A stretch of DNA of 64,000 bases, taken from IMG/VR virus record IMGVR_UViG_3300029708_000226. One strand, written 5' to 3'. A model generated the notes under the pieces. That model did no database searches, had not been told where the DNA came from, and saw only the letters and a list, made by a program, of their open reading frames with translations. A program made the translations under genes and the position numbers. Origin of the DNA: a virus. Its lineage: Duplodnaviria; Heunggongvirae; Uroviricota; Caudoviricetes. How positions within the stretch are numbered: the first letter of the stretch is position 1; the number at the start of each line of letters is the position of its first letter. Positions 3,901-38,598 of this stretch are shown here, in pieces.

Positions 3901-4272
3901 TTACCTTTCTGAAATTGCCGCCGCATACGCCAAATAACATGCAATATCGCCAAGATCTTTTCTGCCAAATTCTTTTTCCAAAGGCATTTTATTATACCTA
4001 AGAAAAATATTCAGACAATCCATAAACCGATCATGTGACGATGTACGATATTTGTCGTTTTCTATCTTCCACATACTATCATGTATTGCCCAGTCCATAC
4101 GGTATTTTGCATACTTGATTGCTGCATTAAGCAAATCCGTCGCTAACTCCCTATTATCCTCATCTTCGCCAGATAGAGCATTCGGAAGCATGGTGCTTAC
4201 GAGTATAGCGATATCTTCACATTCGGAATTGGTAAAAAAACTATTCATAGAAAAGTTCCTCCTTCCGGTCAT
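3901..4272 (-). CDS. Hypothetical protein (123 aa)
   Basis: ORF with its own upstream motif and terminator. Confidence 0.5.
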   Translation of the reverse strand: MTGRRNFSMNSFFTNSECEDIAILVSTMLPNALSGEDEDNRELATDLLNAAIKYAKYRMDWAIHDSMWKIENDKYRTSSHDRFMDCLNIFLRYNKMPLEKEFGRKDLGDIACYLAYAAAISER

Positions 4273-4588
4273 CTAGCTCATGAAATAGCTCTTTTACGTT
4301 TGTATACTCTTCTATTATCTGATCCATATCTGCTTCAGACAGATTAACTGCAGAATAACTTTCGATATGTTTATCGTTAAAGATCGGATCATAAACTGGT
4401 TTAAATATAAAATGAAATTCATTTTTGCATTTTGTTGGAAGTATGGAAACATGTTTTTCGGTAAATTCTTCTCCGGTATCAAAAACGAGCCGGACATCAT
4501 ATCCATAGCCCTGTAATATGCGAACAATGTGCTTTCCGCCGTCAGGATTAGATGTTTTTTCTTCCTTTATAACTTTAAGCTGATACAT
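4241..4588 (-). CDS. Hypothetical protein (115 aa)
   Basis: ORF; promoter motif at ~4618-4634. Confidence 0.5.
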   Translation of the reverse strand: MYQLKVIKEEKTSNPDGGKHIVRILQGYGYDVRLVFDTGEEFTEKHVSILPTKCKNEFHFIFKPVYDPIFNDKHIESYSAVNLSEADMDQIIEEYTNVKELFHELDDRKEELFYE

Positions 4589-4650
4589 TCGTCTCCTCCA
4601 TTTCTCTAGTATTGTATCATTAATATGTCAGAAATGGGAAGAGTAAATAT

Positions 4651-5520
4651 TCAGCGTTCAATATCCTTTGCTGAACAGCCATTGGAATGTTCATAATTGC
4701 CATTTAGCACATCCTGCAGAAGAGAAGATCTTTCCGGTACTTTTTCTTCTATCTGTACTGCCCCTCCGTGATCGCTCGATATTTCCATGACTACATTTTT
4801 GAAAATTTCCTTTCCTATATACCCGTTTTCGCTTTTATCAAAATAACACGATGCACCGCCAAGAGAAATATTACCGACCGTTTCAATGTCGTATTCTCCA
4901 TATTTTGTAGGATTTTCGAGGCTGATCTGACAACCATCGCGAAAAGTGACTATGCCGGTTTTGCGTTCGTTCATGAAAATCTGTAAATCTTCCGATATAT
5001 CTGCGGAAGCGTATTCATTGAATTTTTCTGTCATTTCGTTTTTATTCAGCTCTGGATAAGATTTTTCCTTTGCTTTTTCTACAACCTGGTCCAGGAGATG
5101 CTCTGATTTCTCGAGTGTTCCTTTTTCGAACAATTCGTTTGTCAGGTCTGCACAAAATTTTGCAACACGGTAGTGATTGTCCTGGCTGAATTTTAGTAAT
5201 CCATGTTCCTGTGTCATCTGGGGTTCAAAATCAAATATTTTTTGCTGTCCATTTCGTCTTGCAATATCATTGATATTTTTACAGGCAGCGCAGGCCTTGT
5301 CATGAACTTTATTTCTTTCGTCGTTTGCCTTTTCGATTCTTGCTATATATTCCGACTGATCTATTCTTTCGGAAATAAGGAATGCGCGATTTCTTTCAAT
5401 AGCAAGTTCCTGATTAGCGACTGTATTGACATATTTGGTTAATGTCTGTGCGTATTCAACGATTTCATCTGCACTCCCGGGAACTTTTTCCATAAGTGCG
5501 CTAAGTTTTTCTATATACAT
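4651..5520 (-). CDS. Hypothetical protein (289 aa)
   Basis: ORF; promoter motif at 5541-5558. Confidence 0.55.
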   Translation of the reverse strand: MYIEKLSALMEKVPGSADEIVEYAQTLTKYVNTVANQELAIERNRAFLISERIDQSEYIARIEKANDERNKVHDKACAACKNINDIARRNGQQKIFDFEPQMTQEHGLLKFSQDNHYRVAKFCADLTNELFEKGTLEKSEHLLDQVVEKAKEKSYPELNKNEMTEKFNEYASADISEDLQIFMNERKTGIVTFRDGCQISLENPTKYGEYDIETVGNISLGGASCYFDKSENGYIGKEIFKNVVMEISSDHGGAVQIEEKVPERSSLLQDVLNGNYEHSNGCSAKDIER

Positions 5521-5573
5521 AAAAACACCATCCTTTCTGCCATTAATATGACAGAAAGAACGGGTACAAAATC

Positions 5574-6026
5574 CTAAAGCAGTATCTTCTCTAACAGTAT
5601 CTTCCGCTCATACTCCTCTCGTACTGCGTTCAGGTCAGTTGGTTCCTTTATGGTAAAACGAGCTCTTAGGAATCTCTCCATATCTTTTTCGATATTCTCT
5701 ATAGTTCCTTTTGCGGTTTTTCCAGGTCCTGCTGTAAGATAAAAAGTCCATTTTCCGAGAGCGTTATTGCCACGTCTCCCGTTTTCATCCGGAGCGAGGT
5801 CGCAGCGAATTTCGATTCCGGACAAAGATATCTCCTTACATTCCGGTATCCAACGGTAATCTGTTATTACTCTCATTGCACCGCAAAATAACTGAAACAA
5901 CACGTTTCGAACTTCATTCCAGTGTTCTGCACAGTCTATTTCTATCGTCTGCAGAAACCATTCGAACTCAAAATCCATATCAAGACGGGATCCGGGTGCT
6001 TCTGCCGCTTTTGTTCCTTCAAACAT
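5574..6026 (-). CDS. Hypothetical protein (150 aa)
   Basis: ORF; motif at ~6054-6070 and hairpin TCCCGGAGCGGGGACTCCGGGA upstream. Confidence 0.5.
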   Translation of the reverse strand: MFEGTKAAEAPGSRLDMDFEFEWFLQTIEIDCAEHWNEVRNVLFQLFCGAMRVITDYRWIPECKEISLSGIEIRCDLAPDENGRRGNNALGKWTFYLTAGPGKTAKGTIENIEKDMERFLRARFTIKEPTDLNAVREEYERKILLEKILL

Positions 6027-6357
6027 AATTTTCTCCTATTCTGTTATATATAACTATTATGAAAGATATTTTTTTAAATAACAAAATTTCCCGGAGCGGG
6101 GACTCCGGGAAACGCATCAAAGATAAAAGGGGAATCAGATCTATTTTCATCTGATAATACTATTATAACAGCTTTGAAATTTATTGCAAATTTCTGCACA
6201 GAAATTATTACAAAGAAAAATAAACAAAAATAACAATACAAAACAGTATGTATTTAACAAAACAACTGTTCCATATTGTATTAATTTTAAAAATATGATA
6301 TTTTCGTTATGGCAAAAGTAGATAGATGTTTTTGTTTACGAAAGAGAGGCGAAAATC

Positions 6358-6471
6358 ATGGAAAATAATCATGAAACAAGCGGATCTAATGGACAACCAC
6401 AATCAAATCTAACCGAGCTTCTTTTATTCCTTCTTCTTATTTTTTTAATTCTTGTTCTAATTAAATTCTAA
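6358..6471 (+). CDS. Candidate 37-aa peptide MENNHETSGSNGQPQSNLTELLLFLLLIFLILVLIKF with a hydrophobic C-terminal tail
   Basis: RBS GAGAGG 8 nt upstream of the ATG; a strong hairpin terminator (GGAGATCTACT...AGTAGATCTC) follows at 6487-6515; it is the only plus-strand gene in this neighbourhood. Confidence 0.3.
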   Translation: MENNHETSGSNGQPQSNLTELLLFLLLIFLILVLIKF

Positions 6472-6744
6472 TTTTTCTTCTAAAGGAGATCTACTGTGCA
6501 TTAGTAGATCTCTTTTTCTAATTGAATTCGCCTCTAACCACCATCATAATAGCAAAAAAATATTAAAAAAACTATATTTAATAGCTACAATTTTTTGCTA
6601 CATTATTTGGAAAATGTGCACAAAAAACATTTTTTAATTTTGTATAGTATTTATTTATGTAATGGTTTAATATTTTTTTAAAAAGGTTATAATGATACGA
6701 AAACATATGTTCCGCCGAAAACTAAATTCATTCTTTGAAAGTAT

Positions 6745-7179
6745 TTATTGATTAACAAAAAAATAAACGTCATAAACATCTGCATTTTGATGTGATGAGA
6801 TTTTAAAATATGCCTCGCATATTTTTAAGTAGTCAACTCTCCTTTTGGGAGGAATTGCTATTTCATATCTCGGATAAATGTAACGATACCAAAACAGATC
6901 CAGACACCGGTTTTGTTCGTAATACTCCATCCTTGGTTCAATAATTTGCAGAATTCCGCCTGATTTTAAATATCTGTGGAGACACTGAATCACCTTCGGT
7001 ATATCAGCATGATGTAGTACGTTTTTAAGGCGAAATTCATCAACGGATCCTTCTTGCAATCCAATAATTTCGTTTGTTTCTGTATTGTATACATAATTTA
7101 AATAGGGACCTTGAGTAATATCACATGTTTTATATCCAGGATATGGATTATATCCGCTGCCAAAATCAATTTTAAGCAT
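6745..7179 (-). CDS. Small class-I SAM-dependent methyltransferase-like protein (144 aa)
   Basis: Motif-I-like IDFGSGYNPYPGYKTCDI and LKSGGILQII; tightly linked downstream of the radical-SAM genes. Confidence 0.5.
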   Translation of the reverse strand: MLKIDFGSGYNPYPGYKTCDITQGPYLNYVYNTETNEIIGLQEGSVDEFRLKNVLHHADIPKVIQCLHRYLKSGGILQIIEPRMEYYEQNRCLDLFWYRYIYPRYEIAIPPKRRVDYLKICEAYFKISSHQNADVYDVYFFVNQ

Positions 7180-7188
7180 ACTGCACTC

Positions 7189-7989
7189 CTACGCCAAGTC
7201 GTGGTTTCCTATATCATGGCAGTAATCTTCCCACACAGAATAGACTTTATGGGAATACCGTTCATTAGAATGACAATTCGGTGCAATGATAATATCTGTC
7301 TTTTCGTATCCGGCTTCTTCCGTATCTGCGGATGCGTTTTTATCTCCATGATACCCAAACAGCCCAAATTCTTTTCCCTTCCACTCAAACGTGAAGAAAT
7401 TATGTCCATCACTACGTAATAATTTAGCGCCCATGCCATAAAGCAGATCTTCATAGCTGTCTTTATAGTTTAAATTGTATCTGCCCATAAGATCTTCACA
7501 TACAACCACGCCGATATCATCTGCTAAAATCATATCAACAAGTTCATATAACTTTTCCCCAGTAGACTCCCAAGATTTTGGAAGATTGATGCGTAAATTA
7601 GGCACGTACTTTTTTGCAATCAGTATCTGTTCTCTTCTGGCCTTATATTGTTCTTTAGAAGATATAGAGATTGCCATTTCTTCCAGTCCATTTTCCACTA
7701 AAGCTTTTGTTAATTCTTCAGTTAATTTTGTACCATTTGTTACCAGACAAATTGTATTTACGTATTTATTCACTACTTCGAAATAATCTACGATATTCGG
7801 TAAAAGCAAACTCTCTCCGCCCATAATGGTGGCTCTTTCCAGCATACCTACTTTTTTCATAGTCTCTTCCATTTTTTCAATATCTAATATCTTTTCTCGC
7901 TTCTCCGGCTGAAAGCAAAAATAGCAGTTTTGATTACAATGAAAATTTGTGATAATTCGATACCGGAACACTCTATGATTATGTAACAT
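7189..7989 (-). CDS. Radical SAM enzyme (CxxxCxxC: NFHCNQNCYFCF), 266 aa
   Basis: Start refined to MLHNHRV (GGAGG RBS 8 nt upstream); the hairpin at 8003-8030 separates it from the upstream peptide gene. Confidence 0.75.
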   Translation of the reverse strand: MLHNHRVFRYRIITNFHCNQNCYFCFQPEKREKILDIEKMEETMKKVGMLERATIMGGESLLLPNIVDYFEVVNKYVNTICLVTNGTKLTEELTKALVENGLEEMAISISSKEQYKARREQILIAKKYVPNLRINLPKSWESTGEKLYELVDMILADDIGVVVCEDLMGRYNLNYKDSYEDLLYGMGAKLLRSDGHNFFTFEWKGKEFGLFGYHGDKNASADTEEAGYEKTDIIIAPNCHSNERYSHKVYSVWEDYCHDIGNHDLA

Positions 7990-8037
7990 ATTTTCCTCCA
8001 TAGAAAATGCCCCTGAATGGGGCATTTCTGTTAACGA

Positions 8038-8163
8038 TTACTTATTCTCAGTAATAATAGCTAACTGACCGCATGCAGCTTTTGCAGTAATTTCTGCTTC
8101 AGTCGCAATGGCAACTGCGTAATCATAACCTGCTGCTCTTAACTGATTTGCGATTTTTTCCAT
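8038..8163 (-). CDS. 41-aa peptide MEKIANQLRAAGYDYAVAIATEAEITAKAACGQLAIITENK; candidate substrate or partner of the flanking radical-SAM enzymes
   Basis: GGAGG RBS; sits between two radical-SAM genes with 22-nt and 48-nt gaps; not in the ORF track (<60 aa). Confidence 0.4.
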   Translation of the reverse strand: MEKIANQLRAAGYDYAVAIATEAEITAKAACGQLAIITENK

Positions 8164-8184
8164 GAATTTTTCCTCCTTTATGTA

Positions 8185-8979
8185 TTACATCAAATTTCTT
8201 TTCTCGATAATACCAGATCCCATATGATTTTTCTCAGAAATCTCGTTCTCGTTAATAGGACTTAATTTTATAAAGAAATATCTAGGATCAAAATATTTGG
8301 TCAAGATATTGATGTCAAAATCTTCATAGTCTACCAATGTCATATTGACAGTTGTTTTCAAATTACTATTTGTCCGAATCTGGCCCAGTTCTTCGATAGA
8401 CATCAGATTACTGATAGGAATTAAATTGTGTCGTCTTTCCTCATTAAGACTATGTAAGCTTACTTGTAACGTAATATTGTCTTTAATCCAGCTAAAATCA
8501 CTTCCCTGTAATCCAACTGTAGAGATATAATGATGCGTTCCTGGATATTTTTCGTCAATTATCTGAATGGCTTTTTTTACTTCTTCTATATTTAGGAACG
8601 GCTCTCCCATTCTGGTGTAATTGATTTTATGTTCCCAAGCATCTTCAAATCGATATTCCGGATTCTGTTTGATAATAAATTCCACCTGGGCTACAATCTC
8701 TTCGGCTGTTAAGCAACGCCATCTTTTAAGTTTTCCGGTTGCGCAAAATTTACAATGCACAGGACAACCGCTCATACAACTAACACCAATCATCCATCGA
8801 TTGGTCCGGTCTCCAACTTCATATGTCTTCAGTGTGTTTTCATTGTTATTGATTGCGTCCTTTGTATAATTTGGTAAAAAAGTATCGGTGACTTCCAATG
8901 GATATTCATCCTCTGTTTCTAATGCATATACCTTTCCATTTGTAAAGGATCTGCTGCGTAATTCTTTTAACATAAGCAC
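8185..8979 (-). CDS. RlmN/Cfr-family radical SAM methyltransferase homolog, C-terminally truncated (264 aa)
   Basis: GCPVHCKFCATG, LTAEEIVAQV, MGEPFLN, ISTVG and LQVSLHSLNEERRHNLIPI mirror conserved RlmN blocks; it lacks the C-terminal region that carries the methyl-carrier Cys in RlmN. Confidence 0.7.
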   Translation of the reverse strand: MLMLKELRSRSFTNGKVYALETEDEYPLEVTDTFLPNYTKDAINNNENTLKTYEVGDRTNRWMIGVSCMSGCPVHCKFCATGKLKRWRCLTAEEIVAQVEFIIKQNPEYRFEDAWEHKINYTRMGEPFLNIEEVKKAIQIIDEKYPGTHHYISTVGLQGSDFSWIKDNITLQVSLHSLNEERRHNLIPISNLMSIEELGQIRTNSNLKTTVNMTLVDYEDFDINILTKYFDPRYFFIKLSPINENEISEKNHMGSGIIEKRNLM

Positions 8980-8996
8980 CTCCGTTTATTTTTCTA

Positions 8997-9017
8997 CCAT
9001 TAATATGACAGAAAAAG
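8997..9017 (-). promoter_or_regulatory. Conserved cassette promoter-like motif (CCATTAATATGACAGAAAAAG) heading the radical-SAM operon
   Basis: Motif family; the four genes downstream have no internal motif, so they appear co-transcribed. Confidence 0.55.
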
Positions 9018-9234
9018 AGACAAAAAGATCATTTCTAAAAATTATAAGCTATATGTTAAAAGGATAATATTATATCCATCATATGATTGAAAGTGATAGA
9101 ATTATGTTCCTTTAATTAATGAATTTAAAGGAATAGTGTATTATCCCTTTATGCAACCGGCACAGATTATTGTCCCGCTCATATTAAAAGTACCAATATA
9201 CTATCCCTCTCAAAACAATAAAAAAGAGGAACAG

Positions 9235-9774
9235 CTATCTGTCCCTCTCCGTTATTATTGGTAATATTTCATTTACAGCTTTTTTAAATTCATCCAAATT
9301 ACCGTATGCTCCCGCATTAATAATTGGAATATTATGATCCATAGCTATGCGGATCGCCTGCCCGGTTCCGCCGTCTACTCTCCCACCTGCCGTATAGCAA
9401 ATAATGAAATCAACTGGATCATTAAGATTTTGTCCCAATATCTGATAAGCATCTCTTGCAATTAATTTCTTTGCTGCCGGCTTTAGTGCAAACCAATTCG
9501 GATGATAGTGGATGCTAATCTTTTCTACTGTTTCCGGAATAGGATCTGGCAAAATCAATTCAGAACCATTTCCATTAAATCCTTTCCATGGAAGATAAAT
9601 CTCTTTAGGTCCACTATATATATCACAGCCATCTTCGAAAGCTGTATCGGCGCCATCAGCGGCTCCAGATCTTAATAGAAATCTTCGTTTGGCAAAATAT
9701 CGACCAAGGTAGTCAAAGAGTCCAAGGATTTCTTTTGGAGTTTTTCGGCTACCAATTCCTGCATACTTACTCAT
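9235..9774 (-). CDS. SLOG-superfamily (DprA/Smf/LOG-like) Rossmann-fold protein
   Basis: GIGSR...LLRSGAADGADTAFEDG and a second Gly-rich block AGGRVDGGTGQAIRIA. Confidence 0.5.
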   Translation of the reverse strand: MSKYAGIGSRKTPKEILGLFDYLGRYFAKRRFLLRSGAADGADTAFEDGCDIYSGPKEIYLPWKGFNGNGSELILPDPIPETVEKISIHYHPNWFALKPAAKKLIARDAYQILGQNLNDPVDFIICYTAGGRVDGGTGQAIRIAMDHNIPIINAGAYGNLDEFKKAVNEILPIITERDR

Positions 9775-9798: not shown

Positions 9799-10578
9799 CT
9801 AAGTGGGAACAAATAAAATTTGCTCATATAAGCAAATATCCTGCATAGACACCTGTTTATTGATATGCATATGTCCGAAATACCATTTCTTATATTCCGT
9901 TGTGGCTCGCACTTCTTCCAGATAGTTAGAAATAATATCCGCCTGGTAAAGGCCTTTGCCGCCCATTAAGAACATATCACTGGTGCACGGACTATGGGAA
10001 ATAATATAGTCCACTTTATTTTCGTATTTCTTAAGATTTTCGATTCCTTCAGACATCTCCTGCTCGCTAGGAAGTTCACGTTCCCACCAGGATACTCTCT
10101 TGATACGGTACATGGCTCTTCTATCATCTAACTTCTTTTTATCTTCTTTGAATAGAGGATCTTTTATTCCGCACTGATAATTATCCGGATCCAAAATACC
10201 ATCCTGTATATCATGGGAAGATGCTCCTCCAAACGTAAAGAATGTTTTTCCACAAAGAGTAAATACCTGGCCTCGTATTAAATGAATAACATTAGGTCTT
10301 ACAAAGTGAACATTTCCGCCATTCCATTCAGATACTGGCATAGCATCCAATCTATCATGATTTTCATGATTACCATCTACGAATAATGTAGTGAACGGCT
10401 TATTCTGAAGCCAGTTAAGCCAATATTCTTCTGTTCTTGATTCCATTTGATCCCATACGAGTCCAAAATCTCCACAGACAATAACGTAATCCTCTTTTGT
10501 CATTTTTGATTGTTCTGGAAACGCTTCTTTGGAAAATCTTGTGGGATCTCCATGAATATCTCCTGTAATATAGATCAT
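9799..10578 (-). CDS. Calcineurin-like metallophosphoesterase (Ser/Thr phosphatase-type)
   Basis: GDIHGD, GDFG and GNHE motifs. Confidence 0.8.
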   Translation of the reverse strand: MIYITGDIHGDPTRFSKEAFPEQSKMTKEDYVIVCGDFGLVWDQMESRTEEYWLNWLQNKPFTTLFVDGNHENHDRLDAMPVSEWNGGNVHFVRPNVIHLIRGQVFTLCGKTFFTFGGASSHDIQDGILDPDNYQCGIKDPLFKEDKKKLDDRRAMYRIKRVSWWERELPSEQEMSEGIENLKKYENKVDYIISHSPCTSDMFLMGGKGLYQADIISNYLEEVRATTEYKKWYFGHMHINKQVSMQDICLYEQILFVPT

Positions 10579-27572: not shown

Positions 27573-27696
27573 TTTTCTCCACCTTTCTATATTGATAAAA
27601 TTAATATGAAAGAAAATAATGTTTGGAATCTTATACCAGATTTTTTACTGCTTTTTCGCAGCTTTTCTTTATTTTTGCCTTCGGCAAAATAAAAAA

Positions 27697-32901: not shown

Positions 32902-32985
32902 TTATCTATTTTGATATATTTAATATGAAAGAAAAAGCCTTCCGGAAGTTATCCGGAAGGTTTGGAATATTATTATAAATATTAA

Positions 32986-33076
32986 CGCCGTGGCGGGGAG
33001 TCGAACCCCGAAACCGGATTTTACTCCGAGATGGTGGATTAGCAATCCACTGCTGTACCATTTGAGCCACCACGGC
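32986..33076 (-). tRNA. tRNA-Ser (anticodon GCT), class II
   Basis: Manual fold: GCCGTGG acceptor, anticodon loop TTGCTAA, long variable arm, T-loop TTCGACT. Confidence 0.65.
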
Positions 33077-33089
33077 AAGAAATATAAAC

Positions 33090-33159
33090 GGCCCATTGCG
33101 GATTCGAACCGCAGTCCCTGGGGTCAAGGCCCAGTGCATTGACCGCTATGCTAATGGGC
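33090..33159 (-). tRNA. tRNA, probably Gln (anticodon TTG); loop atypical
   Basis: Acceptor GCCCATT/AATGGGC, T-arm TGCGGTTCGAATCCGCA; anticodon loop CCTTGAC has C at position 33. Confidence 0.4.
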
Positions 33160-33165
33160 TAAAAA

Positions 33166-33257
33166 ACGCCAGTGACAGGACTCGAACCTGTACGTCGACA
33201 TAAATGCCGGCTTGCCTGTGTTCGAAGCAGGTGCTGTACCACTTGAGCCACACTGGC
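33166..33257 (-). tRNA. tRNA-Ser (anticodon CGA), class II
   Basis: Loop TTCGAAC; long variable arm; T-loop TTCGAGT. Confidence 0.6.
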
Positions 33258-33400
33258 AGACTCCCGTGCCCCGCAGATTGGCAGGTTTATCACGAATACC
33301 GCAGCCGTTAGTCAATTTCGACTGAAATACCGTTTAGCACGGGCTTTTTGCATATACACTGAATAGAAACAGGTGACTAATCTGCTTCGCACAGCTTAAA
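33258..33400 (-). ncRNA. Unassigned structured spacer within the tRNA array (no tRNA fold found)
   Basis: Long-range stem CCCGTGC (33262) / GCACGGG (33337) followed by CTTTTT; no ORF. Confidence 0.2.
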
Positions 33401-33407
33401 TGCAAAG

Positions 33408-33481
33408 ACATCGGTGGGATTCGAACCCACGATAAAACCTGTTTTGCAGACAGGCGCCTTAGACCACTCGACCACGATGCC
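33408..33481 (-). tRNA. tRNA-Cys (GCA)
   Basis: Anticodon arm CCTGT-CTGCAAA-ACAGG; T-loop TTCGAAT. Confidence 0.65.
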
Positions 33482-33489
33482 ATAATACT

Positions 33490-33562
33490 ACGGACAGCGG
33501 GACTCGAACCCGCAAAGTACGATTTAGAAGACCGTTGTTTTATCCAATTAGACATGCCCGTA
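33490..33562 (-). tRNA. tRNA-Arg (TCT)
   Basis: Loop CTTCTAA; T-loop TTCGAGT. Confidence 0.6.
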
Positions 33563-33572
33563 TAAAATATCC

Positions 33573-33645
33573 CCAGGCAGATTTGAACTGCCGTTCCCTG
33601 CGTGAGAGGCAGATGTCCTTGACCGCTAGACTATGGGGACTTAAC
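33573..33645 (-). tRNA. tRNA-Glu (CTC)
   Basis: Loop CTCTCAC; T-loop TTCAAAT. Confidence 0.55.
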
Positions 33646-33648
33646 GCT

Positions 33649-33737
33649 GTGACAGGGATTCGAACCCTGAAAGCGGGAATCTCACCCGACATGCCGGATT
33701 TCAAGGCCGGTGCTGTACCAGTTGAGCCATCACAGCA
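33649..33737 (-). tRNA. tRNA-Ser (TGA), class II
   Basis: Loop CTTGAAA; long variable arm. Confidence 0.6.
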
Positions 33738-33741
33738 AAAG

Positions 33742-33832
33742 CGGAACGGGAGGGACTTGAACCCTCAAAGCGTGGATTGACACGACATGTCCGGCTTCCA
33801 ACCGGGTCCTGTACCAATTGAGGCACCGCTCC
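33742..33832 (-). tRNA. tRNA-Ser (GGA), class II
   Basis: Loop TTGGAAG; long variable arm; T-loop TTCAAGT. Confidence 0.55.
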
Positions 33833-33860
33833 ATATCAGGCTCTTTAACAAGAGCCTTTA

Positions 33861-34382
33861 TCATTTTGAAATTTTATCAGCAATTCCGGATGCAACATAA
33901 GACTCCGGCTTAACCTTTGCCTCAAAACCCATTGAAGTGACCCAGCCTATGAGCTCAGGAATCAATTCCTTCGTCTTACCATGTTCAGAATAACCAGCAT
34001 CAATATGAATAGAAAACTCTGTGTTCAAAAATACGTCTTCATATTCCGTTGTCTCAAATATTGTAATAAGCTGTTCTGCTATTTCAAGTGAATCGCCGGT
34101 TTCCACACGAAGTTTTGTTCTTACATCTGAAATACGGTCACGTGCGTTAATCTTATAAAAGAAAATACCGCCGTGTCCTTCACAGATCACAGCAATTACA
34201 CTTACTTCTTTCGTATAATCAAAATTCTGCGAATCCGTACCGATCGTAATATGAATACCGGTACCATACTCTTTCATTCTTTCATAGTAAGCTTTTATAT
34301 ATTTTGGAATTTCCTGTATCATAAGCTCACCGTGTGATGGCGAAATCCAGTTTTCACTGTAATGTTTCTTACTCATGATCAC
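33861..34382 (-). CDS. Hypothetical protein (173 aa) embedded in the tRNA array
   Basis: ORF with a terminator hairpin (AGGCTCTTGTTAAAGAGCCT) at 33840-33860; no family recognised. Confidence 0.5.
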   Translation of the reverse strand: MIMSKKHYSENWISPSHGELMIQEIPKYIKAYYERMKEYGTGIHITIGTDSQNFDYTKEVSVIAVICEGHGGIFFYKINARDRISDVRTKLRVETGDSLEIAEQLITIFETTEYEDVFLNTEFSIHIDAGYSEHGKTKELIPELIGWVTSMGFEAKVKPESYVASGIADKISK

Positions 34383-34409
34383 GTTGCTCCTTTCTGATAT
34401 TTTTTAGCA

Positions 34410-34483
34410 GGCGCGGAGGGATTCGAACCCCCAGACAATCACGGTTTTGGAGACCGTTGCTGTACCAGTTGAGCCACGCACCC
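34410..34483 (-). tRNA. tRNA-Trp (CCA)
   Basis: Anticodon arm ACGGT-CTCCAAA-ACCGT. Confidence 0.65.
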
Positions 34484-34725
34484 ATAATAATGAACAATAA
34501 AAAACAGCCTCTTTTGATAAACTTTTTATCAGAAGATGCTGCAGAGAATGCCGGTAATTTTGTTATGCGAAAATTTTTGCATCAACAAATAAAGCAGTAC
34601 ATCTTCTTATCATGTCTACTCTCTGACCACGAACTATTGGATTGTCTGCTACATCTGTTTACGTTATGCATAATTATTTACTCCTTCCTGCAATTTTTCT
34701 GTATCTGCATAAAAACTGGAAAAAT

Positions 34726-34799
34726 ACGCCAAATCGGATTCGAACCGATACTAACAGGGGCTTAAACCCTGTGCCTCTGCCGATTGGGCTATTGGCGCA
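34726..34799 (-). tRNA. tRNA with Leu-type anticodon TAA but class-I architecture (5-nt variable region), A73
   Basis: GCGCCAA acceptor; anticodon arm CAGGG-TTTAAGC-CCCTG; variable region TTAGT; T-arm ATCGGTTCGAATCCGAT. Confidence 0.5.
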
Positions 34800-34803
34800 T
34801 AAT

Positions 34804-34876
34804 GGGTATGACAGGCCATGATCCTGCAACCTTCGGCTTAAGAGGCCGATACTCTGCCACTTGAGTTACATACCCG
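34804..34876 (-). tRNA. tRNA-Lys (CTT); non-canonical T-loop
   Basis: Anticodon arm TCGGC-CTCTTAA-GCCGA; T-loop ATCATGG. Confidence 0.55.
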
Positions 34877-34898
34877 TGGATACACATGCGGTATCAGT

Positions 34899-34982
34899 GC
34901 ACCCGACGAGACTCGAACTCGCATGGAAAGTAATTCCGCCAGATTAAAAGTCTGGTGCCATACCAATTAGGCGACGGATGCA
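34899..34982 (-). tRNA. Class-II tRNA (16-nt variable arm, A73) with anticodon TTT; identity unclear
   Basis: Anticodon arm CCAGA-CTTTTAA-TCTGG; variable arm CGGAATTACTTTCCAT; T-loop TTCGAGT. Confidence 0.45.
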
Positions 34983-35062
34983 TACATTATAACTTTGATA
35001 ATCGCTTGCATAACTGTTTTCGTTTCATGATTATTTCTCCTTTATTATAAAGATTTTCAATC

Positions 35063-35137
35063 CCAAGGACAGGATTTGAACCTGCGTTTGCCGGGTATGA
35101 ACCGGCCGTACTCGCCGCTATACTACCCTGGAGTAGC
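35063..35137 (-). tRNA. tRNA-Met/fMet/Ile2 (CAT)
   Basis: Anticodon arm GCCGG-TTCATAC-CCGGC. Confidence 0.55.
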
Positions 35138-35138
35138 G

Positions 35139-35209
35139 GGTCCAGGAGTCGAAGCCTGGTATCGCAAGGGTTATGAGCCCTGCATGGTAAATCCGTTCCA
35201 CTCACCCGC
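35139..35209 (-). tRNA. tRNA (CAT), second copy, atypical T-arm
   Basis: Loop CTCATAA; T-region CCAGGCTTCGACTCCTGG. Confidence 0.4.
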
Positions 35210-35212
35210 AAA

Positions 35213-35288
35213 TGCTGATAACAGGACTCGAACCTGTAACCCCATGCTTGTAAGGCATATGCTCTCCCAGTTGAGCTACATCAGCATA
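35213..35288 (-). tRNA. tRNA-Val (TAC)
   Basis: GCTGATG acceptor; loop CTTACAA; T-loop TTCGAGT. Confidence 0.6.
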
Positions 35289-35289
35289 G

Positions 35290-35362
35290 TTGTGGTGGAC
35301 AGAGTCGGACTGTCGTTAACCGCTCATCAGACGGTCTTTCTACCATTGAAATACACCACAAT
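35290..35362 (-). tRNA. tRNA-Ile (GAT)
   Basis: Loop CTGATGA. Confidence 0.45.
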
Positions 35363-35376
35363 ATTTTTTATGAAGC

Positions 35377-35449
35377 CTGTGACAAGATTTGAACTTGCAA
35401 CCCTCTACTTACGAGATAGACGCTCTGCCAATTAGAGCTACACAGGCAT
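35377..35449 (-). tRNA. tRNA-Thr (CGT)
   Basis: GCCTGTG acceptor; loop CTCGTAA; T-loop TTCAAAT. Confidence 0.65.
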
Positions 35450-35451
35450 TT

Positions 35452-35526
35452 TACAGTGCTCCCATGGCGACTCGAACGCCAACTACAGAGTTCGTAGCCC
35501 TGCCGTCTATCCATTAGCGTATGAGA
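35452..35526 (-). tRNA. tRNA-Arg (ACG)
   Basis: Anticodon arm CAGGG-CTACGAA-CTCTG; T-loop TTCGAGT. Confidence 0.55.
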
Positions 35527-35527
35527 G

Positions 35528-35600
35528 CATAGCAGGCGGTAACCGAATCGAACGGGTGTCTCACGGCTCAGAACCGCACGGTTTACCTCTAACCTAACCG
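35528..35600 (-). tRNA. tRNA, probably Gln (CTG)
   Basis: Loop TTCTGAG; T-loop TTCGATT. Confidence 0.4.
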
Positions 35601-35608
35601 CCTATAAG

Positions 35609-35682
35609 CCGCAGAAGGGACTCGAACCCTTAATCCCCTGATTACAAAGCAGGTGCATTACCATTGTGCTACAGCGGCATAT
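35609..35682 (-). tRNA. tRNA-Thr (TGT)
   Basis: Loop TTTGTAA; T-loop TTCGAGT. Confidence 0.55.
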
Positions 35683-35691
35683 TTAATTTCA

Positions 35692-35776
35692 GGGAGACCA
35701 GTGGGGCTCGAACCCACGTAGGAATTGCTTCCGCAGAGCCACAATCTGCTGCCTAACCAACTCGGTCACAGCCTCC
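35692..35776 (-). tRNA. tRNA-His (GTG) with G-1:C73 but an unusual 15-nt variable arm (85 nt)
   Basis: G-1 then GAGGCTG; anticodon arm GCAGA-TTGTGGC-TCTGC; variable arm GGAAGCAATTCCTAC; T-loop TTCGAGC; 3' GGTCTCC then C. Confidence 0.5.
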
Positions 35777-35779
35777 ATA

Positions 35780-35853
35780 GCTGGAATGGCGGGACTTGAA
35801 CCCACAACCTACCGGTTAACAGCCGGTCGCTCTACCATTGAGCTACAAACCAA
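35780..35853 (-). tRNA. tRNA-Asn (GTT) with two U-U mismatches in the acceptor stem
   Basis: Anticodon arm ACCGG-CTGTTAA-CCGGT; T-loop TTCAAGT; acceptor UGGUUUG/CAUUCCA. Confidence 0.5.
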
Positions 35854-35870
35854 TACTATATTATCTAAAT

Positions 35871-35945
35871 GGGGCGAGTGAGAATCGAACTCACGACACA
35901 CGGCTTATAAGGCCGCTGCTCTTGACCCCTGAGCTACCACCCCTT
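35871..35945 (-). tRNA. tRNA-Ile (TAT), the rare AUA decoder
   Basis: Anticodon arm GCGGC-CTTATAA-GCCGT; T-loop TTCGATT. Confidence 0.55.
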
Positions 35946-36037
35946 ATGAAATAAGGTTCGGTATAGATATTCGTCTCATGGTCTTGTTTCTCCTTTATAT
36001 TTGTTATACTCTTTCTACAGGAAAGAAAATGTACCAG

Positions 36038-36111
36038 AAGGGATTCGAACCCATAGAAAACCGGATTTGAGCCGGCCCCGTCTGCCAGTTGCGGCACTGA
36101 TGCATACAGTC
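36038..36111 (-). tRNA. tRNA with Leu-type anticodon CAA, class-I architecture, A73
   Basis: Anticodon arm GCCGG-CTCAAAT-CCGGT; 5-nt variable region; T-loop TTCGAAT. Confidence 0.5.
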
Positions 36112-36114
36112 GGA

Positions 36115-36188
36115 ATGACAGGTCTCGAACCTGCAGCCTCATGATCCCAAATCACGCGCGCTACCAATTGCGCCACATCCCGATACAG
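36115..36188 (-). tRNA. tRNA-Pro (TGG)
   Basis: Anticodon arm CGTGA-TTTGGGA-TCATG; T-loop TTCGAGA. Confidence 0.55.
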
Positions 36189-36264
36189 TGCCCATGAGTG
36201 GATTCGAACCACCAACCTCTGCCATCTGAAGACAGTTCGTCTGCCAATTGCGCCACATGGACAT
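36189..36264 (-). tRNA. tRNA with Leu-type anticodon CAG, class-I architecture, A73
   Basis: Anticodon arm CTGTC-TTCAGAT-GGCAG; variable region AGGTT; T-loop TTCGAAT. Confidence 0.5.
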
Positions 36265-36267
36265 CAC

Positions 36268-36347
36268 AGTACCTCGAATGGGAGTCGAACCCATAAACAA
36301 TCACAGAGTCCTTAGCTCTGCCGCTTTGCCAATTTGCGTACCGAGGC
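36268..36347 (-). tRNA. tRNA with Leu-type anticodon AAG; intermediate 9-nt variable region
   Basis: Anticodon arm CAGAG-CTAAGGA-CTCTG; T-loop TTCGACT. Confidence 0.45.
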
Positions 36348-36361
36348 ATATTTATTTTAAG

Positions 36362-36445
36362 TGGGCGAAGAAGGACTTGAACCTTCAGAAGCCGAAGCCA
36401 ACTGTTTTACAGACAGTACCGCTGCCAATTACGGGATATTCGCCC
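36362..36445 (-). tRNA. tRNA-Tyr (GTA), class II
   Basis: GGGCGAA/TTCGCCC acceptor, A73; loop CTGTAAA; long variable arm; T-loop TTCAAGT. Confidence 0.65.
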
Positions 36446-36450
36446 AAAAG

Positions 36451-36538
36451 TCGGCAGGGTGAGAGTCGAACTCACAATGTTTACCACGAGGGTCACAGTT
36501 TTACAGACTGCTTGCTTCAGCCTTTTGCATACCTGCCG
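36451..36538 (-). tRNA. Second tRNA-Tyr (GTA), class II, diverged sequence
   Basis: CGGCAGG/CCTGCCG acceptor, A73; loop CTGTAAA; ~19-nt variable arm. Confidence 0.55.
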
Positions 36539-36607
36539 TTAATAATATTCAGTTCCCATATAATAATAGTCTGGCATATCAGTCATCTCCTTTACATTTC
36601 TTAAGCT

Positions 36608-36681
36608 CTCACAGCAGGACTTGAACCTGCAACATCCCGGTTAACAGCCGGACGCTCTACCGATTGAGCTATGCGAGAATA
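36608..36681 (-). tRNA. tRNA-Asn (GTT), second copy
   Basis: Anticodon arm TCCGG-CTGTTAA-CCGGG; T-loop TTCAAGT. Confidence 0.6.
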
Positions 36682-36683
36682 GA

Positions 36684-36757
36684 GTGCGTGAACGGATTCG
36701 AACCGTCCCTTTCTGCTTGGAAGGCAGATGTGCTATCCGCTGACACTACACACACAT
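36684..36757 (-). tRNA. tRNA-Gly (TCC)
   Basis: Anticodon arm TCTGC-CTTCCAA-GCAGA; T-loop TTCGAAT. Confidence 0.6.
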
Positions 36758-36763
36758 AAGCGA

Positions 36764-36838
36764 CTCCAACGGGATTTGAACCCGTGTTATTCCTGCGTGA
36801 CAGGCAGGTGCCATAAACCAGCTAGGCGATGGAGCCAT
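36764..36838 (-). tRNA. tRNA-Asp (GTC)
   Basis: Anticodon arm CCTGC-CTGTCAC-GCAGG; T-loop TTCAAAT; G73. Confidence 0.6.
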
Positions 36839-36841
36839 AAT

Positions 36842-36915
36842 GCCTCGTTTCGGTTACGATCCGATCCTCTGGAGCTTCAATCCAGCGCTTCTACCAAGTT
36901 AGCTTACGAGGCTCG
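36842..36915 (-). tRNA. tRNA-Phe (GAA) with non-canonical T-loop
   Basis: GCCTCGT/ACGAGGC acceptor; loop TTGAAGC; T-loop ATCGTAA. Confidence 0.5.
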
Positions 36916-37025
36916 GTAAAGTCAGTATCGTCTTTACCGCCATAAAATCGTTTATCCATATTTTTTCAATGTCCTTTCGTATATTGTATAAATCCTGAGT
37001 GCCTGGTTCAGAATTTAAGAGCAGA

Positions 37026-37096
37026 TGACGGAACTCGAATCCGCATTTCTGACTTGGCAAGCCAGTGTATTAGCCAGCTATACGACATCTGCATGT
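37026..37096 (-). tRNA. tRNA-Gly (GCC)
   Basis: GCAGATG acceptor, U73; loop TTGCCAA; T-loop TTCGAGT. Confidence 0.6.
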
Positions 37097-37159
37097 GGGA
37101 CAAACGGAGTGCCTGGTTCCATAAGTCCCTGTTTTGTTGTATTACGGATATTTCCGTAG

Positions 37160-37232
37160 CGACCGATGCGGGATTCGAACCCACGTCTCGGGAGTGAAAT
37201 TCCCGTGACCTCGTCCTCTAGTCGAATCGGCC
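37160..37232 (-). tRNA. tRNA-Glu (TTC)
   Basis: Anticodon arm CGGGA-ATTTCAC-TCCCG; T-loop TTCGAAT. Confidence 0.5.
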
Positions 37233-37239
37233 AAATCAA

Positions 37240-37316
37240 TGGAGCATATGGGAATCGAACCCATCTGTTTTTCCTGTTTGCAAAACAGGCGACCACCCCT
37301 TGCAGTCCCATACCCC
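37240..37316 (-). tRNA. tRNA-Ala (TGC) with G3:U70
   Basis: GGGGTAT/ATGCTCC acceptor gives the G3-U70 Ala identity pair, A73; loop TTTGCAA. Confidence 0.65.
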
Positions 37317-37403
37317 ATATAATTAAAAAGACCACTAAACTAAGACAATTTCTTAATCCAGTGGTCATGATTTCATATTTCCAATCTATGCGCGGTTCCT
37401 GTT

Positions 37404-38393: not shown

Positions 38394-38598
38394 GAATTTT
38401 TACCTCCGATTTTCTTTGATGATATTAATATGAAAGAAAAAGAGTTGGAAAAACCGATTTTGATTTTCTTGTATTAATCAAATTCCCTTATTTTATTTGT
38501 TTTACGACAATAACATGAAAAATATTCGACAAATTATACTTTTCATTTTTGCTAAATATTGATATGATGGAAATGCATCAAAGAAAAAGAGGGATAAT

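Follow-up and report, generated by a model that had tools for sequence, protein, structure and literature searches.

RlmN and Cfr constitute the model system for C-methylation by radical S-adenosylmethionine (SAM) enzymes, and as a resistance enzyme Cfr is of clinical importance. To our knowledge, every RlmN/Cfr member described so far carries its methyl-carrier cysteine and its resolving cysteine on one chain. In the reaction Cys355 of RlmN is methylated, and the thiomethylene radical formed from it adds to the adenine, giving a covalent RNA–protein adduct that is resolved by a second conserved cysteine (PMC5130265). In the mutant RlmN C118A no 2-methyladenosine (m2A) is formed and the covalent RNA–protein adduct is trapped (PMC5130265). 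Here we describe two neighbouring genes of a virus of the Caudoviricetes which are likely, to judge from their sequences, to encode, as two halves, a single class A radical SAM methylase of this kind, with C-methylation of adenine in RNA as the probable activity. They are situated in a stretch of 64,000 nt (referred to as the window) from the IMG/VR virus record IMGVR_UViG_3300029708_000226; near-identical contigs of 34–234 kb are present in human gut metagenomes.

With RlmN (E. coli YfgB; TIGR00048; PDB 3RF9/5HR6) and Cfr the split enzyme shares the CxxxCxxC cluster within G-C-x3-C-x-F-C, the MGEP, S-T-x-G, S-L-H and P-x-N blocks, a partial barrel fold and, in a C-terminal loop, the cysteine of an AACGQL identical to the C355 motif of RlmN. 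It differs from them in that its tail is a separate polypeptide of 40–60 aa, the position of Cys118 is occupied by glycine, the N-terminal domain of ~85 residues is lacking, the RlmN profile score is ~85 bits compared with a cutoff of 290 bits, and the genes are phage-encoded. In a literature search, the coverage of which was incomplete, neither phage-encoded nor split RlmN/Cfr-like enzymes were found described; a prior description is possible.

The large subunit

In the open reading frame (ORF) listing of the window four closely spaced genes occupy the minus strand from 9013 to 6745. All five ORFs that an earlier note on this sequence had proposed were found where it had placed them, and its operon of four minus-strand genes was borne out, since the same four genes recur together in other phages. 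The first gene (8185..8973, minus strand) encodes the putative large subunit of 262 aa, which was assigned by its match to the RlmN profile and by its fold. The gene itself stands as proposed (8185..8979), whereas the start is probably not the GTG at 8979 but the ATG at 8973, which has a GGAGG 5 nt upstream. The resulting length of 262 aa was also called independently in eight related contigs and is typical of the homologs, which fall into 2112 clusters, the best 120 measuring 257–281 aa. Among genome bins, the closest relatives of the large subunit are labelled Clostridia or Bacilli, in agreement with the strong Shine–Dalgarno sites of the window.

The cluster motif GCPVHCKFCATG has the spacing C70-x3-C74-x2-C77, with GCPVHCKFC at residues 69–77. 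Pfam Radical_SAM matched above its cutoff (1.3e-8), and the RlmN profile TIGR00048 matched with an E value of 1e-22; the matches to RlmN and Cfr profiles were confined to the positions ~101–244. Sequence matches in the PDB were RlmN and Cfr. An AlphaFold model of the large subunit reached a mean predicted local distance difference test score (pLDDT) of 86.8, the last ~12 residues being poorly ordered. When this model was compared with the PDB by Foldseek, the top six matches were all RlmN (6fz6, 4pl1, 3rf9, 4pl2) or Cfr (9p0p), with E values of 5e-13 to 1e-7 and template modelling (TM) scores of 0.60–0.72; the next family followed at 2e-4. The predicted structure thus shows a [4Fe-4S]/SAM core with the RlmN fold. 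Both the assignment to the RlmN/Cfr family, already made in the earlier note, and its remark that the C-terminal cysteine region is missing from this ORF are confirmed, the former by profile and fold, the latter by the end of the profile match at ~244.

The 41 aa ORF as the probable detached tail

No methyl-carrier cysteine is present on the 262 aa polypeptide itself. By its sequence, the second gene of the operon (8038..8163, minus strand) encodes the counterpart in trans: a small subunit of 41 aa which corresponds to the C-terminal tail of RlmN (helix, strand and AACGQL loop) and bears the presumptive methyl-carrier cysteine. The peptide has a single cysteine, Cys31, and this is the cysteine of AACGQL. 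When the peptide was appended to the large ORF, the match to TIGR00048 was extended from 101–244 to 101–342 of 355 positions, the matches to the Cfr profiles reached 337/338 and 342/348, and the scores of the RlmN/Cfr profiles rose by 4–7 bits. In a MAFFT alignment the peptide was placed on residues 326–366 of E. coli RlmN (the reference sequence used is 100% identical to PDB 3RF9), with Cys31 on Cys355 and AACGQL identical. Independently, hhalign aligned the peptide profile with residues 329–362 of full-length RlmN (P = 1.7e-4, probability 49%).

Further evidence was obtained from relatives. The motif G[YF]DYA.A[IV]AT..EI...AACGQL is shared by the window peptide, the crAss-like Bacteroides phage Kehishuvirus 'tikkala' and the Moorella phage MTATph1, and in the two latter phages a short radical SAM gene is followed by an ORF of 40–43 aa. 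Three fused relatives (L130–L132, 328–340 aa) are collinear with the large subunit plus the peptide across the junction, and in one of them (L131) the match runs to the end of the Cfr models. Some peptide homologs have already been labelled RlmN by the pipeline of the Joint Genome Institute. For one homolog the Pfam family PF28536 is on record.

The 41 aa ORF has its own Shine–Dalgarno sequence, AAGGAGG, 8 nt before the ATG. The peptide is conserved along its whole length, 11 of the 41 columns being invariant, with neither a division into leader and core nor a hypervariable core. Every synonymous codon of the invariant Ala, Cys, Gly and Gln residues is in use among 47 lineages. Of the codon differences counted there, 8389 leave the residue unchanged and 3860 change it. 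Synonymous variation at invariant residues points to selection on the protein. That the 41 aa ORF might be untranslated, which according to the earlier note would speak against its interpretation, is excluded as a general explanation by this codon-level selection and by the ribosome binding site. As a second objection of this kind the note had named that the C-terminal cysteine could simply be positioned elsewhere; this is essentially what was found, the cysteine residing on a separate polypeptide.

Distribution and gene order of the pair

For a census 133 phage and metagenome-assembled genome (MAG) loci were collected and grouped into 56 lineages at 80% identity. A tblastn search of the isolated phages with the window peptide found Kehishuvirus only, at E = 1, and a hidden Markov model (HMM) built from the census peptides was needed. 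When 83 viral and 49 genome-contig loci were scanned with this model, one strong peptide match on the same strand was found in 81 of the viral and in about 45 of the genome-contig loci. After dereplication the tail peptide accompanies the large subunit in 53 of the 56 lineages; the remaining three comprise a flank filled by cassettes, a contig end and a fused relative. Peptide homologs form at least 2781 clusters, and the best 120 are free-standing and 40–64 aa long.

The position of the peptide gene varies. It is either adjacent downstream, with a gap of −29 to +23 nt, or located 1–4 kb downstream behind inserted genes, two or more genes separating it from the large subunit in about 40 loci; in L090 and L125 it lies upstream. 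The Vibrio phage D479 has a 93 aa ORF (L147 3803–4084, VPHD479_0342) consisting of two tandem peptide modules, each with AACGQM. Besides this phage, the cultured phages with the system include the Pectobacterium phages Arno162 and Wc4 and the Yersinia phage P778. The pair corresponds to orf59 and orf56 in Arno162/Wc4, to ORF010 and ORF008 in P778, and to 0341 and the tandem 0342 in D479. Overall, the viruses that carry the split system are associated with Bacteroidota, Firmicutes, Proteobacteria, bacteria of the candidate phyla radiation (CPR) and DPANN archaea. Very diverse phages thus keep the pair as two separate genes. Clustering of the neighbourhoods across the lineages revealed no further universal partner.

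Two side observations concern the surroundings of the pair. Genes of nicotinamide adenine dinucleotide (NAD+) salvage, identified by motif and annotation only, closely precede the gene for the large subunit. NadV-like (nicotinamide phosphoribosyltransferase-like) genes are present there in 11 and NadM-like genes in 9 of the 56 lineages, for example at 802–1836 and 2416–3819 of L005. In 10 of the 56 lineages a cassette different from that of the window stands between large subunit and tail peptide (L033 4755–5908; L036 5744–6864; L078 4807–5972; L030 7106–8620; L015 4820–6168; L004 4802–5689). It consists of a protein of 80–150 aa with a Cys-rich tail (...GGCGCGSGHC, ...SNGRC, ...TRTSC) and, after it, a third radical SAM protein of ~275–310 aa with a C-terminal C.C.NYLY. 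This looks like a pair of the type found with ribosomally synthesised and post-translationally modified peptides (RiPPs); no NCBIfam family matched the Cys-tailed small proteins.

The accessory genes

The third and fourth gene of the operon encode an accessory radical SAM protein of 266 aa resembling MoaA and viperin (radical SAM 2; 7189..7989, minus strand) and an accessory protein of 144 aa resembling a minimal class I SAM methyltransferase (6745..7179, minus strand). The start of the former at 7989 was predicted correctly by the earlier note and has a GGAGGA upstream. Homologs of the two genes occur together in 9 of the 56 lineages and never apart. They are thus an optional accessory cassette which the core pair does not need. 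Its usual place is between large subunit and peptide with overlapping stop and start codons, as in L043 (first radical SAM 4001–4783, radical SAM 2 4780–5547, methyltransferase 5522–5968, peptide 5955–6074). The order of the window, with the peptide gene in second place, is rarer; L143 has it too, and L016, L123 and L124 show variations of it.

Radical SAM 2 was identified by Pfam Radical_SAM (3e-14) and by its fold. Its cluster motif is C18-x3-C22-x2-C25, and C81, C164 and C257 are additional conserved cysteines. In the crAss-like clade radical SAM 2 (L043 4780–5547, L020) has Cx11Cx2C (CNMNESTGVNGNCYFC) instead of the Cx3Cx2C of the window. The best match of the profile in the PDB was MoaA (5e-13), and a model with a pLDDT of 93.5 was matched by Foldseek to MoaA with a TM score of 0.70, then to viperins, SuiB and AbmM. 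Radical SAM 2 therefore has the radical SAM core and the overall fold in common with MoaA (GTP 3',8-cyclase) and viperin/pVip. It differs from them in that the matches stay far below the family cutoffs and cover the N-terminal ~100–200 residues only, and in that it is always paired with the 144 aa methyltransferase. Against the viperin model NF038283 it scored 49 bits (cutoff 180) over residues 29–126 only, and against the MoaA model 47 bits (cutoff 231), its extra conserved cysteines not being at the positions of the auxiliary cluster. In a scan for known defence systems with PADLOC radical SAM 2 alone was matched, to pVip and only in its N-terminal part; structure matches in BFVD were uninformative.

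The methyltransferase-like character of the fourth gene, also proposed before, is supported by a clear match to PHROG 5399 'SAM-dependent methyltransferase' (8e-23) and by motif I, DFGSGYNP; the match to Pfam Methyltransf_11 is weak (E 1e-3, just below the cutoff), and a sequence search of the PDB returned no relative. A homolog also occurs alone in large Bacillus phages, in phage Tsamsa near genes for a PnuC-like protein and a nicotinamide mononucleotide (NMN) adenylyltransferase. Our best guess is that radical SAM 2 and the methyltransferase act on a nucleotide or nucleoside.

Proposed mechanism and the resolving cysteine

We suggest that the peptide docks at the open edge of the barrel of the large subunit, where it would provide the final helix and strand together with the methyl-carrier cysteine. 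One SAM would S-methylate Cys31 of the peptide. A second SAM would yield the 5'-deoxyadenosyl radical, by which the methyl group of Cys31 would be turned into a thiomethylene radical, and this in turn would attack C2 or C8 of the target adenine. The target would most likely be RNA (tRNA position 37 or 23S rRNA) during infection. RNA target, site and release chemistry we infer.

Release cannot follow the textbook route, because the position of the resolving cysteine is glycine throughout the split family. This position precedes the first cluster cysteine by seven residues and was found to be Gly in all 133 loci within the motif [WYF][MIL][IVL]G[VI]S.MSGC; the residue of the window is Gly63. No other universally conserved cysteine was found in either subunit. 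Cys66 (position −4) is invariant in the subclade of the window only, the other subclades having Thr or Val, and might substitute for the resolving cysteine in this subclade.

Fused phage proteins show how the position varies in single polypeptides. The proteins of the Salmonella phage Arash (gp133c; L145 2965–3894) and the Stenotrophomonas phage ANB28 (L146 2974–3933) comprise 309–319 aa and retain both catalytic cysteines, including the canonical cysteine at −7 (VMCVSTQAGC ... GGGCGQLW). The fused proteins L130–L132 have a cysteine at −5, and the fused protein of the Bacteroides phage Versailles has no such cysteine. All these proteins (Arash, ANB28, Versailles and the MAG-derived L130–L132) resemble the split enzyme in being short, in lacking the N-terminal domain and in ending on a CGQ or CGN tail; unlike it, they are single polypeptides, and they are 28–35% identical to the window protein.

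Several points weigh against a split methylase of the RlmN type. The N-terminal domain of RlmN (~85–100 residues) is missing from the large subunit, whose profile match begins at ~101 and which, in the alignment with RlmN, has only the beta-hairpin ahead of the core. The TIGR00048 cutoff of 290 bits is not reached, neither by the large subunit alone (80 bits) nor with the peptide appended (85 bits), and against the Cfr models, which have cutoffs of 468–550 bits, the scores were only 54–58 bits. The hhalign probability of the peptide–RlmN match is just 49%, and searches of the PDB with the peptide alone (phmmer, and a profile at E <= 10) recovered no RlmN/Cfr tail. The resolving Cys118 is missing from the split family, and with both this residue and the N-terminal domain lacking, substrate and catalytic turnover cannot be taken for granted. 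Since the signal of the peptide is too short on its own, the homology of the tail rests jointly on collinearity and concatenation, the motif, hhalign, the fused intermediates and co-occurrence. In its working the split enzyme thus appears to be RlmN/Cfr-like, but by its scores it is a member of neither equivalog family.

The lack of Cys118 also leads to the alternative that survives best, although we regard it as doubtful. By analogy with the RlmN mutant, the peptide could be a consumable, diffusible methylene carrier, which would be left covalently on the target adenine by a methylene thioether (an S-CH2 bridge to C2 or C8), while the large subunit would be recycled with a fresh peptide. The outcome would be a tRNA, rRNA or DNA tagged with the peptide, for the shut-off of the host or for protection, and thus a natural enzyme-catalysed conjugation of peptide and nucleic acid, which many phages would employ during takeover. 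The inserted cassettes, radical SAM 2 with the methyltransferase or the Cys-tailed protein with the third radical SAM protein, would then process or diversify the adduct. The glycine at the Cys118 position in 133 of 133 loci together with the lack of any other universal cysteine argues for this alternative, and a separate gene with a strong AAGGAGG and a hairpin behind it would permit an excess of the peptide. The tandem modules of phage D479 would be expected of a carrier and not of a structural tail. On the other side, Cys66 is invariant near the C118 position in the subclade of the window, fused relatives without a cysteine at −7 exist (Versailles, and L130–L132 with the cysteine at −5), so that other release routes are probable, and a stoichiometric peptide–RNA adduct would be costly; we know of no precedent for one. 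The closest experimental counterparts are RlmN C118A, which traps the RNA–protein adduct, and the equivalent Cfr mutants: there, too, a carrier cysteine is present without a resolving cysteine, and an unreleased protein–CH2–adenine adduct is to be expected by analogy (PMC5130265). The split family differs from these mutants in that it shows this state naturally and in conserved form, with a small, detachable peptide as the carrier.

RNA or DNA as target

For the split methylase itself an RNA target is favoured, because the characterised relatives act on RNA, the window contains 35 tRNA genes, tRNA genes are found close to related loci, and the fused gene of phage ANB28 is situated inside a tRNA array (Ile, Pro, Leu and Thr upstream, Ser downstream). 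The 35 tRNA genes of the window form an array at 32985–37317 (minus strand), which covers nearly all amino acids and includes Ile-tat, four Ser and four Leu tRNAs; such an array could serve an RlmN-like enzyme as a pool of substrates. In 8 of the 56 lineages tRNA genes are located within 4 kb of the locus, and five of these adjoin arrays of 3–13 tRNAs. This proximity is suggestive, but the count has no control.

Alternatively, and in our view improbably, the same split enzyme could C-methylate adenines of the phage DNA as a protection against restriction, and further elaboration of the base would then fall to radical SAM 2 and the methyltransferase. Such a role would fit the neighbourhood in the Moorella phage (thymidylate synthase, UvsX and helicase) and in Kehishuvirus (HNH, HKD nuclease and DnaB), the lack of the RNA-binding N-terminal domain of RlmN, and the resemblance of radical SAM 2 to MoaA and viperin, which act on nucleotides. 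Set against this are the expense of two SAM per methyl group when a whole genome is to be modified and the position of some relatives in or beside tRNA arrays; moreover, we know of no report of C2- or C8-methyl-deoxyadenosine in phage DNA. All class A radical SAM methylases characterised so far act on RNA (PMC5130265). The earlier note had kept modification of RNA or DNA by the RlmN/Cfr homolog as a fallback, and this is closer to the evidence than the RiPP cluster it had put first.

RiPP cluster or unsplit gene

In a RiPP cluster the 41 aa peptide would be a precursor, to be matured by both radical SAM enzymes and by the methyltransferase into a secreted or otherwise active peptide. A small ORF does lie between two radical SAM genes, as in the maturase systems SuiB/SuiA, SkfB and the sactisynthases, weak structural matches to SuiB and SkfB were obtained, and other loci do hold a RiPP-like cassette, namely the Cys-tailed protein with the third radical SAM protein. 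We nevertheless consider a RiPP cluster very improbable. The window peptide is homologous to and collinear with the catalytic tail of RlmN/Cfr; it is a fragment of an enzyme with a catalytic motif, not a leader/core substrate, and its conservation from end to end leaves no variable core. Furthermore, the peptide tracks the large subunit (53 of 56 lineages) and not radical SAM 2 (9 of 56), the latter and the methyltransferase being missing from 47 of the 56 lineages, in which the peptide is kept. A search with SPASM and twitch profiles, which the earlier note had proposed as a check, and with models of the RiPP recognition element (RRE) gave no significant match for either radical SAM enzyme, radical SAM 2 having three conserved cysteines besides its cluster motif; neither a protease nor an exporter was detected in the profile searches.

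That the enzyme is not truly split, the two ORFs being fused by readthrough, recoding or frameshift or representing a decaying pseudogene, can practically be dismissed: the peptide ORF of the window is in frame with the large ORF, 21 nt after its stop, and some crAss-like phages reassign stop codons, but the stop of the large ORF is TAA, the peptide has a strong Shine–Dalgarno sequence of its own, the gaps elsewhere are negative or measure 2, 4, 7, 8, 10–12, 14, 15, 20 or 23 nt, about 40 loci have two or more genes in between, the peptide gene comes first in L090 and L125, and thousands of intact copies are under selection at the protein level. Readthrough, frameshift, pseudogene decay and an untranslated ORF were accordingly excluded as general explanations by the data on gene order, Shine–Dalgarno sites and codons.

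Transcription signals and neighbouring genes

A promoter-like motif, TTCTGTCATATTAATGG, is located at 8997..9013 (minus strand), 24 nt upstream of the ATG of the large subunit. The promoter motif reported in the earlier note is a real recurring element: TTCT[GT][TA]CATATTAAT occurs 17 times in the window, on the minus strand only, compared with 0.41 copies expected. Nearly all 17 copies, for example those at 5540–5556, 27598–27614 and 38422–38438, are followed within about 12–25 nt by a Shine–Dalgarno sequence and a start codon. The copy at 8997–9013 is at the same time a weak inverted repeat (−7.7 kcal/mol). From its recurrence and position the motif is probably a phage-specific promoter.

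The hairpin that had been noticed behind the 41 aa ORF is present between the peptide gene and radical SAM 2 (8004..8028, minus strand; −15.6 kcal/mol, z = −3.4) and is followed by UUUUCU. It is a possible attenuator and could in this way influence the expression ratio. Downstream of the operon a terminator-like hairpin at 6086..6113 (minus strand; 12-bp stem with 6 GC pairs and a T-run; −19.5 kcal/mol, z = −5.1) probably ends the transcription unit. Another terminator-like hairpin stands ahead of the operon at 9223–9250. An Rfam scan of 5400–9400 resulted in no significant match, including in the 630-nt gap 6114–6744.

Directly upstream of the operon genes for a DprA-like protein (9235–9774, minus strand; PHROG 768, 7e-52) and a metallophosphoesterase (9799–10578, minus strand; PHROG 1649, 3.5e-40) are encoded. 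These probably belong to a separate transcription unit, because they are situated ahead of the promoter-like motif and of the hairpin at 9223–9250. In close relatives the genes upstream of the DprA-like gene alternate between metallophosphoesterase and acetyltransferase, and in L135, L137, L139 and L140 (~7184–7435) an IS605 OrfB/TnpB (Cas12f-like) gene replaces the Band_7 gene of the others.

The gap 6114–6744 is poor in ORFs and specific to the phage lineage of the window. It contains a small ORF of 37 aa with a hydrophobic tail (6358..6471, plus strand), which is preceded at 8 nt by a Shine–Dalgarno-like GAGAGG and followed by a strong terminator (6482–6516, plus strand; −18.9 kcal/mol, z = −5.0); ORF and terminator are the only plus-strand feature noted in the region. 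The ORF was annotated by none of the gene callers in eight relatives. It is unchanged in close relatives which differ by 4–5% elsewhere in the gap; these relatives are 95–100% identical and thus too close to judge its conservation. In a relative of 77% identity with the same gene order the next gene begins 73 nt after the methyltransferase, leaving no room for the ORF. Of the convergent 37 aa gene postulated in the earlier note, the ORF and its own terminator are therefore retained, whereas its membership in the module is not. To judge from its sequence features it may be a real gene for a small membrane peptide or a toxin-like protein.

Implications

Recognition of the split pair corrects what is likely a systematic mis-annotation, as thousands of ORFs of about 40 aa have been left as 'hypothetical' and a seemingly truncated radical SAM gene is easily mistaken for part of a RiPP cluster or for a pseudogene. 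The system is present in cultured phages of tractable hosts (Pectobacterium, Yersinia, Vibrio and Bacteroides), which makes experiments feasible. If the adduct indeed stays unresolved, the system would be a natural peptide–RNA crosslinker and usable as a tool. For the RlmN/Cfr family the finding means that there is a large phage-borne clade with the presumptive carrier cysteine on a separate peptide of ~40 residues and with no resolving cysteine. This raises the questions of how a covalent intermediate is released, whether a methyl-carrier peptide can work in trans, and which nucleic acid is modified by these phages.

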